Both the position numbers and the translations under genes were made by a program. Source: Anolis carolinensis (taxonomy: Eukaryota). From it: 64,000 nt of DNA. Shown one piece after another: positions 14,758 through 60,252 of the stretch (position 1 is the stretch's first letter; every line of letters begins with the position of its first letter). The notes under the pieces are model-generated. The model had not been told where the DNA came from. It made no database searches and saw only the letters and a program-made list of their open reading frames with translations. Location of the stretch: assembly GCF_035594765.1 (NCBI RefSeq), contig NC_085841.1, positions 319,309,402-319,373,401 of the forward strand. The letters are read 5' to 3'.

Positions 14758-14989
14758 AGGTTGTTGTATGTTTTCCGGGCTGTATAGCCATGTTCCAGAA
14801 GTATTCTCTCCTGACGTTTTGCCCACATCTATGGCAGGCATCCTCAGAGGTTGTACCTCACAACCTCTGAGGATGCCTGCCATAGATGTGGGTGAAACCT
14901 TAGGAGAGAATACTTCTGGAACATGGCCATACAGCCCAGAAAACATACAACAACCCTGTGATCCCGGCCATGAAAGCCTTCAACAACAG
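14758..14989. mobile_element. Penelope-like element: inverted (fold-back) pseudo-LTR pair
   Basis: ~96-bp inverted arms (14759-14854 / 14860-14955) around ACCTC; same sequence as the 3' end of the GIY-YIG-bearing copy at 59617-60252; TSD TATGAATAAA (14748-14757 / 14990-14999). Confidence 0.9.
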
Positions 14990-39732: not shown

Positions 39733-41125
39733 TGTAATGCCTCATGGGCCTTGTAGTCCTGCTCCCAGTGCCACCGTGGCTGATGAAGATGAAAACATGG
39801 GGTTTTCGCCGGCTCAGCAAGAGTCGAAATTTTTCCAGATGCCGGAAGTTAGATGCCTGCTTCATTGGTCCCTACCCGGTGGTGACGCAACTTAACCCTG
39901 TGACTTTCAAACTCCAACTTCCACGTTCCATGCACATTCATCCGGTGTTCCACCGTTCCCTCCTCCTTCCGGCGGATGGTGTGCGCCCAGATGTGAGCCG
40001 GCCACCCCCTGCCCCTGCATTGGTGGACGGGGAAGAGGAATTTGAGGTCCAGGACATTTTGGATTCTCGCCTTCATCGCCGCCACCTCCAGTATTTGATT
40101 GATTGGGTGGGTTATGGACCGGAAGAACGCTCCTGGGAAGACGCTTCCACAGTCCATGCCCCTGACTTAGTTCGACGCTTCCACCGGACTTACCCTTCCA
40201 AGCCGCGCCCCCGCGGATCTCGGGGGACGGCCCTGAATGAGGGGGGCCTTGGGAGGGAGGATAGTGTAATGCCTCATGGGCCTTGTAGTCCTGCTCCCAG
40301 TGCCACCGTGGCTGATGAAGATGAAAACATGGGGGTTTCGCCGGCTCAGCAAGAGTCGAAATTTTTCCAGATGCCTGATGTTGATGTTTTTGCCCAAGAA
40401 CCCATTAAAACAGACCTTGAGCAGTTCTCACCTCCTTTTGCTAGGAGACAGTCCTATGCTGCGAGCAGGGGAGAGAAGGAGCAGGTTCGGAGGAGTTTGA
40501 GACTTGCAGCTAAACAAGAAACAATTAGCCATGTTCCCCTGGGAAAATCTAGGGAGTCTCACATCTGGAGAGAGCTGTGTTTCGTTTCCTGTTCCCTAGG
40601 GAAAGGGAGCGCTGGACACCTGCTTTGCAGGAAAACGAGACCTAGTTAAATGTGCCTGGCACGGTAGGTTCCGTGCGGAGTCAACAGAGCAGCTTCAGGA
40701 GTGATTTCGTGTTTCCAGCCTAGTGTGGACTTCGCAAAGTCCGCAAACCCAGTCTCCTTGCTTTGCCTATCCAAGTATTCAAGAATTGCCTTGCCTTGTT
40801 CCTAGTCACGGACCTTGTTCCTAGAATCAAGTTTGTTTCCAGCCTTGTTGTGGATTTACCTTGGACCTTGTAAGATCTGGACATTTCCCCACAGTATTGC
40901 TTGGCAATAGTGTGTGTTTCTGTTTGTTGGATTCTACTTTGAACTCTAATATCATTTATTGGACAAAACATTTCTGGACTATATTTGACCTCACTTGATA
41001 GGTCTGCTTCTGGACCATATTTTCTACTTGTTTTTATTATTCTTATATATTTCCTTAATAAAGATATTAGATAGTTATTGGCCTCTGTGTTTGGTCCTTA
41101 GTGCTCCGTTGCCTTGGGCGTGACA
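39733..41125 (+). mobile_element. Internally deleted chromodomain-containing Ty3/Gypsy LTR retrotransposon
   Basis: TSD ATTCT on both sides; 5' LTR stub 39733-39843 (110/111 identical to the 3' LTR start); integrase 3' end; PPT-like GGGAGGGAGGATAG; full 3' LTR 40265-41125. Confidence 0.96.
39844..40649 (+). pseudogene. Gypsy integrase C-terminus (GPY/F motif + chromodomain) reading into the 3' LTR
   Basis: KLDACFIGPYPV...HPVFHRSLL; chromodomain EFEVQDILDSR...YLIDWVGYGPEERSWE; no stop before the LTR. Confidence 0.93.
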
Positions 41126-44100: not shown

Positions 44101-45690
44101 AGACAGTATAGCAGTAAATGTTTTCTTGAAGGAGGCTGAGGTTCAAGATATTGTAAATAATGTTATCTTTGTAGAGTTATCCTTTGATCCCTTAATTTCT
44201 TGGGTTTATCAAAATTATTTAAAACAGGAGAATAACTGCAAATTAAAACAATGGTAATTGAAAATTAATGGGATCTTGAGCATACACTCTTTAACATATA
44301 TGCATACATATAAAAAGGCATAAGGTAGCAAAAATCTGATTACATGTGTAGTCTGCTGGAAGATTCATGGCCAAGGAATTCATTCCTTTGGAGACAAAAT
44401 AAAATATAGACATCCTAGTGAAAAGTACTGATGAGCTCTGTGTGTGCGGACAAAGTGGACAGGGTTGTTTCTCATATCTGGTTTAGAAAATTCTTCTGTG
44501 ATATGTATTTCACTACTAGAAAAATCAATGAATGCTTCTGTTACGATTATAAGGGTATTGATGCGTTAGAGAGCTTGTTCTTTTGATGGAAGCACAGAAC
44601 CTTCTTACATGAGACGTACATCAAACAAACCACTGCACACAGAGGATCACAGTACCTACCAGTACATTGGATGTCACATTTGAAAGATGAGTGAAGCCTC
44701 ATGTGCTATTTTTAATTCACTCTGTCATCTGAGATTCCTTTAAGTTGCTCTTCTTACATCTTGAAGTGGGAGGAAGCGGGAAGCAGGGGAGAAAGAAAAA
44801 AGGAGCCCTTTTTTTCCAAAGAGAATTTGAAAGAAAAAAGTTTTAGTTACATTTAATCCAAGACAGAAAGCAATGTTTCAAAATCATTCAGTTACCTGCA
44901 ACAAGATATGTGTGGAGGTTGCCTTAAATAATGACTGTGGAGAATCAGTGTGATATAACAATATGAGTGTTTGACAGGAGAGGATCTTCATTGACATATA
45001 TCCCATCTATACTGGACTTTTAAGCATCTTTTCCCCAGTCTGAAACCAGAAGTAGCACACATTTGGGACTTCACACAACACACACACACAAATCTCCAAT
45101 CTCCATGGTAGTCTTCTTTCCAAAGTGCTGCTCCATGGCTTTGGTATGTTTGTAAATAGCACAATAACGTGGTGAAGATGGAAAGCACATGGTTTCCTCC
45201 AATGATCAGCATCAAGTGTTGTAGTAGAGCCAGTAAAGTAATGTTGCAAGCAGTAGTATGAGTACCAGAAGGGGGGAAAGGGCTACTCGCGAGCAGGAGT
45301 CAGATGAAGAACAGCAAAAGAAAAGGATCCGGGATATACTTATGGCACCTACTGATGAAGACACATTTGAAGGGTTTTCAAGTGGCAAAGAGTCAATGAG
45401 CGATGAAGGAGATGTGGTGGATGGGAATAGAGGCACAAAGAGGGTTACTCGGGAGCAGGAATCAGATGAAGAATGGGAGAGGAAGAAGATCAGGGATATA
45501 CTTACTGCTCCCACAGATGATGAGTCGTTTATGGGTTTCTCTGGGAATGATGGGTTTGGGAGTGATGAGGATGGGGAGAACACAATGGATTGGACTAAGG
45601 TACAAGAGATAAGGGATATATGTGCAGAGCCAACCTCTAGTGTCACGTTTGTGGGGTTTTCGGGACATGAGGATTGGCAAAGGGGAGATA

Positions 45691-45794
45691 GGGTTGTTGT
45701 ATGTCTTTCGGGCTGTGTGGCCATGTTCCAGAAGTATTCTCTCCTGACGTTTCGCCCACATCTATGGCAGGCATCCTCAGAGGTTGTGAGGTAT
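45691..45794 (-). mobile_element. Penelope pseudo-LTR fragment
   Basis: Same family as the 14759 arms; perfect 9-bp TSD GGGGAGATA (45682-45690 / 45795-45803). Confidence 0.92.
45743..45783 (-). ncRNA. Minimal type I hammerhead ribozyme motif (Penelope-associated), core intact
   Basis: Minus strand reads CCU-CUGAGGA-U-GCCUGC-CAUAGAU-GUGGGC-GAAAC-GUC-AGG: core boxes, helix II, helix I and a GUC cleavage triplet. Confidence 0.75.
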
Positions 45795-48700
45795 GGGGAG
45801 ATACATCAGAATCATGGGAAAGCCTAAGTCTTGACAAGAGATGGAGGAACTGGAGGAATGGAAACAGGGGTTCACATGTGAAGACGACAGCTGTAAGAGA
45901 TGATGATGGGGTGGAGGCCAGCTCATCATCAGATGATGATGTGTAAGTTAAAAGTAGACTCTGAAATGGGGAATTTTTGCAGAAGGCAAAGTGTCAGTTA
46001 CATGTCGTGTGTATTTGTCGCTGCCTGTTCTCGTGTTGGGTTTTGGGTCCGGGTTCTGCAGCCTGGAGTTCGTGTTACCTGTGGATCTTCGACTTGGACT
46101 GATTTCTTGTGAGTGTGGCTTTCTCCCTCTCTGGATTGTGGACTGACTTGATGACAACTTTGTTTGACAGACTTGGAAACGACATATCCTTTGGCTTCTT
46201 TGGCAATGACTCTTGGACTACGGCTGGCTTTGGCAACTCCTTTTTGCAGTTAACTCTTTGGGGGGCAGTGCTGTTTGTTGGAACTCTTTGTATACAGTGC
46301 TGCTTGTTTGCTGGTTTGCTGTTTTTTAATCTGTTTTTTCCTCCTGTTTAATCCGGATTATTTTCCGTTTGCCTTTTGGAGCCCAGTTTGGGTAAATTCT
46401 TTAAGTTTTGGCCAGAGACACTGAAGCTAAGTGTATCTGAGCTTTTATTTGTTTCTGCAATAAACCTTTTGTTGGACTAAATAGCGTGTGTGGCTCTTTA
46501 AGGCCTCTGTGTCTCGACACCAGGATTCATATTTATCTCAGTATTAATTAGAACTGAATTTTTATTTAGGCTTAATGTGAACATTGGCCCACAAATATCT
46601 GTTAAGATTGTTTGCACATAAATCACTAAAAACTGCTGTCTAGAGAAAATGAAGATTAGAGGGAATCATTTCAGATTATATCACGGGCATTTATACTGGA
46701 ATTGATTGTTGTTGTGAAAATGAGTACATTGTTTATTTTGACTGGGGAACATTTATTAAGAATATCAAATAAAGTTTAATAATATGGTTTTTTGTGAAAG
46801 AAAAATAATTCTAAATTCAAAATGTGCTGGTTCCTCGGCAAACTACAAATCCCAAAGTTTCATAGCATTAAACCACATCAGTTAAAGGGATATTAAACTG
46901 CATTAATTCTACAATGTAGATGCATCCATAGATGGCCCTTGCAATCCCTTTCATAATGCTATGGTTCTATTGATATAGGTAATGTAGGTATTTCCTTCAT
47001 TCTTGTCTCATAACACACCAGAGATTCATTTTCTCCTTCATCAAATTGCTTATGTGTTAGTATTTCACTGTGCATTGATTTGCCAAGCTTACAAAGTTGT
47101 TGTTGGAAAATGCTTTGTTTTCATACTCAGTAGAACCCCAAGAAAGTCCAAAGTCCCACCAATGAAATTTCTCCTGGGATATTATTACAATGAAGTGGAA
47201 TGATACCTGCTGGGCATTGCCCTGATTTACAGTGCTTTAGTGAATAAAAAAAACTCCTCTTTCAGAATCCACTGCTGCTGCTTTGTAAAGGTCAGTGTGT
47301 ATTGGGTGGTGATTTAAATCAATACTTTTGATTGTTGTTGCTTCGGCATTAAACAGTGGTGAAACTATATATGAAAGGGAATGTTAGGCTCTCTCAAAAA
47401 TAGATCTGCCCTCAGAAATATAACAAAGGGAGAAAATGGATGAACAAATGGATGTGGCTGTTTTAGAAAGGTTCCAAAGGAAGTAATTACAAGTCTTTGC
47501 ATGCCTTCAAAAACAACAGTGTCACCAGCTTGAAAATCTTGAACCTCAATTGAACACCTACAGCATAGATAGAGGGAATATGTGGATGTTTTGTGCCAGA
47601 AAAATACCTCGCTTTTCAATTGGTAGCAGCAAAATGGACAACTCAGCAGCTACTGTGTTATCTTTCCTAGCAAGTGAATTTGCCGTCATACAAGTATTTC
47701 TTGGCTGACAACAATATTATTGCAAATCTTTCTCTACATCTGAGCATTAACCTCCCTTATACGTTCACCAAATTGCTGCACTTTTTGTTTGATGACACAG
47801 AAAAATAACACTTCCCAAAAGCACAACACCAGATGGTAATTACATTCTAATAATAGAACAAAATAGTGAGATCGCCTCCTATTTTTTTGTGCTTTAAATT
47901 GATGAGACGGCAGAAAGGCAGTCACTTGGTAACTATGGTAAAAGGAATGGGACTGGGATAAAGAGCCATCCACCAGTTTAGAAACAAATAAACAAGTGGC
48001 AGGATGGCATTTGAGGCATGATTCGCAAGTGATACTACTGGATATACTGGGATTTTTTTTTTTGAACAAGCAGCTACACAGGGCAGGTTCACACATGCAT
48101 GGCAATGTCTGGTGGGGAAAAGATCTTGTATGAGTGCTTGAATTACAACTTTCAAAAAACAACATTATTCTTGGGTATTATTTATGTGAAAGCAGGAAGC
48201 CTTACACAAATATAAAGTTATTTCACACCACTGAGGAAATAGAAGGCCAGCATAACCATGACCCTGTAGAGAAATCTTGCAGATCAACATATCAATATGT
48301 GATTGCCTTTAGATTTGTAATGTTTCTTTTATATGGATGTGAGGCATTGAATCTTTGCCTTTTATTATGTTGTGAACTGCTTTGAGTTTCCCTAGGGATG
48401 AGAAAAGCGTTATATAAATGAAATAAATAAACAAATAAAATAACAGAACCCTCTACAATTCCTGGTCTATTCTGCTAATAGGCACCAACCATTTGAGCAA
48501 GCAGGATATAAATAGACTGCTTGATAGTAGCAAAATTGCTTTTTCATAAAGTACTTATGTTCAGCTAATTAGTAGTTCAGCGTTTATTAACTTCAATATT
48601 TCCTCCATTGTAGCATAACTACTTATTTTCTTTTAGGTAAATTGTAGTTATTACATGAACACAAACCAGTGCTTATATCATAAGATTCTGCTTGGCCTCA

Positions 48701-59616: not shown

Positions 59617-60252
59617 TACATAGGGACTACCAAACACAGCACCCAAACATGAATCAAGGAACATGAAAGGCTCTGCAGACTATCTCAACCAGAGAGGTTA
59701 GCCATAGCAGAGCACTTGATGAACCAACCTGGACACAGCATGTTTGAGAACACAGAAATGCTGGACCACTCCAACAACTATCATGTCAGCCTACACAGAG
59801 GAGCCATTGAAATTCACACTCATGTGGACAATTTCAACAGAAAGGAGGAAACCACGAAAATGAACAAAATCTGGCTACCAGTATTAAACTCTAAAAACAG
59901 GACAGTAAATAAAGAGCAACACTCAGAAGACAGTGGAATTCCAGACATGAAACAATAAGGGCCAGCTAATGCCTCCCAGAAAGGATTCCCCCAGGCTGGA
60001 AGCAGCCAGGCTTTGAAGCTGCAAGGCTTTTCAATGCTAATCAAGGCAATTAACTGCAACATTCACACTTGCCTCCAACAGACAAGAGTTCTTTCTCCCA
60101 CTCTGGACATTCCACAGATATATAAATCTCACTTTCCTAGTTTCCAATATACATCACAAACTTTGAGGATGCCTGCCATAGATGTGGGTGAAACTTCGGG
60201 AGAGAATGCTTCTGGAACCTGGCCATTCAGTACGGCAAACTCACAGCAACCC
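59617..60252 (+). mobile_element. Penelope 3' fragment (GIY-YIG endonuclease C-terminus + pseudo-LTR)
   Basis: YIGTTKHSTQT*IKEH...AIAEHLMNQPGH...AIEIH..NFNR; ends with the pLTR (decayed hammerhead at 60160-60200). Confidence 0.92.

Follow-up and report, generated by a model that had tools for sequence, protein, structure and literature searches.

LEDGF-binding-like motifs in the LTR-encoded integrase tail of an Anolis Ty3/gypsy retrotransposon family

The motifs by which host proteins engage TFIIS N-terminal domains (TNDs), the TND-interacting motifs (TIMs), comprise a helix, an acidic linker of 8–16 residues and an optional FxGF; the FxGF is present in all known LEDGF and HRP2 partners, CK2 phosphorylation increases affinity, and host proteins with several motifs are adaptors linking several TND factors (PMC9987994). 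A strict form of the motif is [E/D]xExFxGF (bioRxiv 10.1101/2023.01.30.526367). Among retroviral integrases, LEDGF binding is described as specific to those of lentiviruses, proceeding through the catalytic core, and tethers located in the integrase tail are described for MLV (partner BET), Ty5 (Sir4) and Ty1 (AC40) (PMC4176367, PMC7459421). The chromodomain of Ty3 binds TFIIIB (10.1101/2021.07.27.453949), and in group A of the plant CRM elements a targeting motif encoded by the long terminal repeat (LTR) at the 3' end takes the place of the chromodomain (PMC3059260). Here we describe an LTR of a Ty3/gypsy family that encodes three helix-acidic-FxGF motifs in the lizard Anolis carolinensis, on contig NC_085841.1 of assembly GCF_035594765.1 (positions 319,309,402 to 319,373,401, forward strand). 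This stretch of 64,000 nucleotides is the window, and its own numbering is used throughout.

The frame that carries the motifs is the C-terminal tail of Pol, i.e., of the integrase, which in full-length relatives continues into the 3' LTR. We consider it probable that in elements of this kind, which lack a chromodomain, this tail tethers the integrase through LEDGF/HRP2-type motifs, by a binding for which prediction gives weak support and with a putative targeting.

The LTR-encoded integrase tail and its motifs

An earlier note, made from the sequence alone, had proposed a free-standing 191-residue protein with three repeats, encoded by an LTR-like element. The repeats lie in the window as quoted, in a single plus-strand frame from an ATG at 45258..45260, and TG...CA ends together with 5-bp target duplications in the copies identify the element as a solo LTR. 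The protein, by contrast, does not stand on its own. A pattern made of the polypurine tract and the start of the LTR recovered 60 junctions in the genome, and at 21 of the 30 junction loci retrieved no stop interrupts the frame over 100 or more upstream codons or onward through an FxGF; most of these 21 belong to a sister family with one motif, and among them are L085 and L086 from the three-motif family and L097 from one with two motifs. Where a relative has retained its internal part, Pol is uninterrupted from the SH3 domain of the integrase across the polypurine tract into the 3' LTR and on through the motifs. In three young one-motif elements (L119, L120 and L122) the LTRs are 99% identical and the Pol frames, of 1136–1219 amino acids, are intact and end about 144 codons inside the 3' LTR, and in L119 and L120 Pfam finds Gag, protease, reverse transcriptase (RT), RNase H, integrase and a Tf2-type SH3 domain, in that order. 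The search for full-length parents that had been called for succeeded in the relatives; the three-motif parents are themselves damaged, those of the window family (L115, L116 and L081) being broken Pol remnants with the same domain order and 55–85% identity to the Pol of L119. The U3 stretch at 45218..45946 (plus strand) corresponds to the code for the integrase C-terminal tail of full-length relatives, here severed from Pol and split by an insert, and it ends at a stop codon common to the family (45944..45946, plus strand). The motifs are not part of a host-gene fragment, which had been considered as an alternative.

The ATG at 45258 is specific to a subfamily: it is present in all 29 close copies with three motifs, in 10 of 17 intermediate ones and in a single one of 20 distant ones. 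Twenty-five of the 29 close copies have the frame open as early as the LTR's first codon. Removal of the insert had been said to restore some 191 codons, a length matched by 11 of the 29 closest sister copies, all of them free of the insert, which give 191–192 codons from the same ATG.

Patterns styled on primer-binding sites and purine runs, also used in the search for parents, yielded solo LTRs or little. Locus L080, examined as a candidate full-length parent, proved to be an unrelated chromodomain element nested inside an LTR copy. Another Ty3/gypsy family adjoins the parents at L115:2-3862 and L116:6044-9501, and its Pol in L115 ends just after the SH3 domain, with neither chromodomain nor motif.

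The three motifs of the window (45321..45380, 45483..45542 and 45603..45662, all on the plus strand) each consist of a predicted helix, a linker and FxGF. The strict form is found in motif 2 only, which fits [E/D]xExFxGF exactly, motif 1 having D instead of E. The linker is acidic and contains Ser/Thr in motifs 1 and 2; that of motif 3, the weakest of the three, is rich in Ser/Thr and has at most one acid. The hydrophobic pattern of the putative helix is conserved. The resemblance to JPO2 that the earlier note had put forward was confirmed: the sole PDB match of the window protein is 6emo, the complex of the LEDGF integrase-binding domain (IBD) with JPO2 M1 (E 0.33), and a profile built from 30 element motifs has 6emo as its only significant match in PDB (E 0.00038; next match 0.71). 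When the same profile, built only from element motifs, was run against about 93 kb of six-frame translated host DNA around two zf-4CXXC_R1 genes, three host motifs ranked at the top (E 0.00012, 0.00038 and 0.0023; next 15). These motif-bearing genes are by inference CDCA7L and CDCA7, and up to 11 of 17 residues are identical between an element motif and a JPO2-type motif of the host lizard. The profile match in PDB and the match to the host CDCA7 family support the proposal that the element motifs are LEDGF/TND-binding-like. LEDGF-domain genes exist in the host genome; separately, an intronless LEDGF-domain match with a stop (L130, G000:C2:143.72 Mb) is likely a processed PSIP1 pseudogene.

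Other searches returned little. Pfam gave nothing significant on the window protein, and the motif profile matched eight sequences among 1.84 billion representatives, four from anole-type elements and four repetitive and apparently unrelated, with no host protein above threshold; in a homologue search the tail is present in only two Anolis carolinensis proteins among 5 matches, and an Atlas search gave nothing usable. Regarding a possible capture from host CDCA7L, as opposed to convergence, nucleotide identity is 25–32 of 51, and no likeness was found in the DNA flanking the motif, with nothing shared with the host exon beyond 11-nt words. In searches of the open literature, which do not extend to subscription papers or bioRxiv supplements, no TIM was seen described for the integrase of a retrotransposon.

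AlphaFold depicts one natural copy, with low confidence (mean pLDDT 47), as disordered apart from short helices that immediately precede each motif (pLDDT 40–63). Complex prediction for motif 2 with the anole LEDGF IBD scored 0.37 against 0.00 for the best control, a weakly supportive result in which runs share at least 67% of contacts and partner pLDDT is at least 56. In the calibration of this score, 51 of 78 solved pairs and 2 of 108 mismatched ones attained the mark.

Between young families, purifying selection acts on the tail. The ratio of nonsynonymous to synonymous substitution rates (dN/dS) between L119 and L120 is 0.32 in the LTR-encoded tail (Fisher p 1e-5) and 0.17 in the motif (Fisher p 0.007), with 0.02–0.05 in RT, RNase H, integrase core and SH3; dS is 0.46 in the tail versus 0.8–2.0 in the core. 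Across the 30 motif units FxGF is near-invariant, as the conservation check proposed earlier had asked: the first Phe is present in 30, the Gly in 29, using all four codons, and the last Phe in 29, using both codons. Helix and FGF positions have a pN/pS of 0.25 versus 0.66 in the flanks (12 units compared in 66 pairs, which are not independent). The companion check of dN/dS across copies was borne out between the young families and not, at significance, within the window's own family. There, singletons among 66 copies have a dN/dS of 1.30 with 10 stops, the neutrality of private changes that is expected because the copies are dead.

Probable chromodomain loss and relatives of the element

Ty3/gypsy membership is evident from the LTR ends, the target duplication and the order of Gag followed by protease, RT and RNase H, then integrase. 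Of the two features of chromoviruses, the RT grouping is present and the C-terminal chromodomain of the integrase is absent: Pfam did not find PF00385 (Chromo) in L119, L120, L117 or the tail of L115, and found it in L080 of the same genome. In a quick integrase tree the motif-bearing anole rows form one clade of 13 rows (SH-like approximate likelihood ratio test, SH-aLRT, 100), on a long branch without resolved placement; the row labelled L115_2732 in this tree is a different element, mislabelled. A quick RT tree of 25 rows nests the anole motif clade among chromodomain-bearing squamate elements (SH-aLRT 100), and an ancestral chromodomain was therefore likely lost. The families without a chromodomain carry one, two or three helix-acidic-FxGF motifs, and we infer that a single motif was gained and then duplicated to two or three.

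Similar patterns occur in other elements. Among 121 Pol relatives the tail could be located in 87, and FxGF is present in 10 of these (2 from anole, 7 from the wall lizard Podarcis muralis and 1 from rice, the latter with a tail of 857 residues); apart from the anole and Podarcis muralis proteins, FxGF occurs in 1 of 78 integrase tails. The Podarcis muralis Pol proteins with FxGF directly after an intact or decayed chromodomain are P0147, P0150, P0162, P0163, P0168 and P0177-P0179. In P0147 and P0150 the motif follows an intact chromodomain, as it does in 10 of the 12 members of the P0150 cluster, and in the P0162 group it follows a decayed chromodomain that has no Pfam match. The Podarcis motifs sit upstream of the polypurine tract and not within the LTR, and their likeness is one of pattern only, the anole profile matching them poorly (best E 0.015, within a small set). 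The RT tree parts the anole and Podarcis groups, with one clade not rejected by the approximately unbiased (AU) test (p-AU 0.13). A tentative scenario, with the balance tipped slightly against it, is that squamate chromoviruses, possibly twice, swapped the chromodomain, a reader of heterochromatin, for host-type LEDGF/HRP2-binding linear motifs and so retargeted integration to transcribed gene bodies; the wall-lizard elements, with motifs behind a chromodomain and then a motif behind a decayed one, and the anole elements, with motifs alone that were amplified to three within the LTR, would then be snapshots of the switch, and these elements the first non-lentiviral users of LEDGF, by motif mimicry.

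A chromodomain-bearing Ty3/gypsy fragment is also present in the window at 39733-40649 (SH3 E 5e-14, Chromo E 2.5e-10), its frame likewise entering its own LTR, and a junction pattern related to it has 3060 matches in the genome. Integrases of chromodomain-bearing squamate elements (L080:4051-7827, P0003, P0146 and P0153) terminate within the LTR in RRSAR[L/I], a sequence present in 3 of 87 tails, and the window frame 39738-40649 has RRSLRL in its place. RRSAR[L/I] resembles RRSARLSA, the reported acidic-patch motif of HMGN proteins, and LTR-encoded tails may harbor host chromatin motifs of a second kind.

The window copy and its insert

The solo LTR of the window spans 45217..46519 (plus strand) and is about 1190 bp long in uninterrupted sister copies; its 5' part is 94% identical to L081 and 91% to L127, both of them 3' LTRs preceded by a polypurine tract. 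In the 22 copies with both ends scorable, from 30 loci, the 5-bp target duplication is exact in 16 and matches in at least four of five bases in 20; in the window copy only three of five bases match. As it stands, this copy has a 189-codon frame that traverses the insert and stops in the element's 3' part, and it is a dead solo LTR with its tail frame detached from Pol. A TATA-like TTAAAAG lies directly 3' of the family stop codon (45948..45954, plus strand) and is a presumed promoter element, and a polyadenylation-type signal, AATAAA, is found at 46459..46464 (plus strand). The family is high-copy: a genome DNA search gave 1372 candidates, of which 40 were scored, all 94–100% identical, and a genome protein search gave 8245, of which 150 were scored. 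The GFGSDED to which attention had been drawn is present in the window copy but private to it, its F being found in none of 66 other copies (65 have S and 1 has P); the V of motif 3 is equally private (0 of 66; 62 D, 4 N). As an anecdotal observation, of the family LTRs at L080 and L081 one lies beside ABC-transporter-like exons and the other beside a C2H2 zinc-finger array.

The insert comprises 104 bp (45691..45794, minus strand) and is flanked, as had been reported, by a 9-bp duplication (45682..45690 and 45795..45803, to which strand does not apply). A Penelope-like element has been described in anoles (PMC11167929), and the insert is likely a Penelope-like pLTR (pseudo-LTR) fragment: the repeat is very common in the genome and often in inverted pairs, which the Penelope label fits without being confirmed. 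Neither Rfam nor a tRNA scan gave a match for the insert, and its folding revealed nothing. More copies of the repeat lie in the window at 14759-14956 and 60149-60252, one of them an inverted pair. The identity of the insert has no bearing on the main result.

Proposed tethering, rival explanations and known systems

If the tail is a tether, it would stay on the integrase, and its motifs would dock on the IBD of LEDGF or HRP2, a contact that CK2 would presumably enhance; the PWWP domain of LEDGF/HRP2, reading H3K36me2/3, would then draw integration to transcribed chromatin, and the motif repeats would give avidity across the intasome. Several observations weigh against this reading. The mark was reached at a complex score of 0.60 or less by only 5 of the 78 solved pairs and by all 4 passing mismatches, and motif 2 may have passed by memorization, because a like complex (6emo) is already solved. 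No copy was found in which the frame continues unbroken from integrase to the end of the third motif, the parents with three motifs being old and damaged. TTT encodes the first Phe in all 30 units, which would be compatible with some nucleotide-level constraint on U3, and window family variants shared by at least 8 of the 66 copies have a dN/dS of 0.61 with no stops, which is not significant (p 0.067). Three-motif copies are depleted on small contigs (7 of 150 versus 15.3% expected, p 6e-5) and the junctions show no enrichment there (5 of 60, p 0.15), small contigs being likely gene-dense microchromosomes, a proxy that lacks a control family and is confounded by post-insertion selection.

The tail might instead bind LEDGF/HRP2, or another TND protein such as IWS1, TFIIS, ELOA, MED26 or PNUTS, in a role other than targeting, such as retention in the nucleus, stability or activity of the integrase, or continued transcription of the new insertion, perhaps after protease cleavage from the integrase. 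We hold this to be unlikely, even though it rests on the same profile matches and selection as tethering, the small contigs are not enriched in copies, and multi-motif host proteins serve as adaptors among TND factors (PMC9987994): the tail occupies the chromodomain's place at the integrase C-terminus, where MLV, Ty5, Ty1 and CRM carry targeting modules, and, as regards the other TNDs, FxGF indicates the two H3K36me readers (PMC9987994). A chance likeness, in which no TND is bound and the tail is simply acidic and disordered, or the U3 repeat is kept as DNA for a nucleotide function, appears quite improbable, given that the Gly and second Phe codons vary synonymously, that pN/pS is lower at helix and FGF positions than in the flanks, that FxGF is so rare in other integrase tails and that similar motifs occupy another position in wall-lizard elements; the shortness of the motif, a single-sequence E of only 0.33, the fixed TTT and a tail dS below that of the core, as expected under DNA-level constraint on U3, speak in its favor. 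Expression from the LTR of a separate 191-residue multivalent decoy, which the ATG in all close copies and the 191–192-codon frames would permit, is very improbable, as the ATG is nearly absent from distant copies in which the motifs persist, in most close copies the frame reaches back to the first LTR codon and in the parents it is continuous with integrase, the private changes of solo LTRs are neutral and include stops, and the TATA-like site lies downstream of the frame, which an RNA started in the LTR would therefore likely lack.

The preferred reading, tethering by the integrase tail, can be set beside several known systems. Host TIMs (JPO2/CDCA7L M1, MLL1, IWS1, POGZ, MED1, ASK) share with the lizard motifs a short helix, predicted in the latter, with two hydrophobic anchors, an 8-residue acidic Ser/Thr linker and FxGF, as well as serial copies in IWS1 and JPO2; the lizard motifs differ in being borne by the integrase of a mobile element, where they are known from sequence, and in the poorly acidic motif 3. 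The host factor and chromatin target proposed for the lizard element are those of the lentiviral integrases, such as that of HIV, but the latter use a folded catalytic core dimer and the N-terminal domain, unlike the presumably disordered, non-retroviral lizard tail with its host-type linear motif. The use of LEDGF has been regarded as peculiar to lentiviruses and as dependent on a folded interface, and a host-type motif on the integrase of a vertebrate retrotransposon would, if true, be an independent route. The gammaretroviral tail (BET ET domain), Ty5 TD5 (Sir4) and Ty1 TD1 (AC40) each have, in a disordered C-terminal part of the integrase, a short motif for a factor of host chromatin or transcription, as proposed here; the lizard element differs in its partner class, in the repetition of the motif and in encoding it inside the LTR. 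Vertebrate chromoviruses of the L080 type have the same order of Gag, protease, RT, RNase H, integrase and SH3, a 5-bp target duplication, the same polypurine tract and a Pol that enters the LTR, and the anole motif families differ from them by their FxGF motifs and lack of a chromodomain. If the reading is true, the series formed by chromodomain, chromodomain plus motif, motif only and tripled motif is a natural one in which to study the evolution of integration targeting. The likeness to group A of the plant CRM elements is one of architecture; their CR motif belongs to an independent lineage and is tied to centromeres, with a partner that PMC3059260 does not name.

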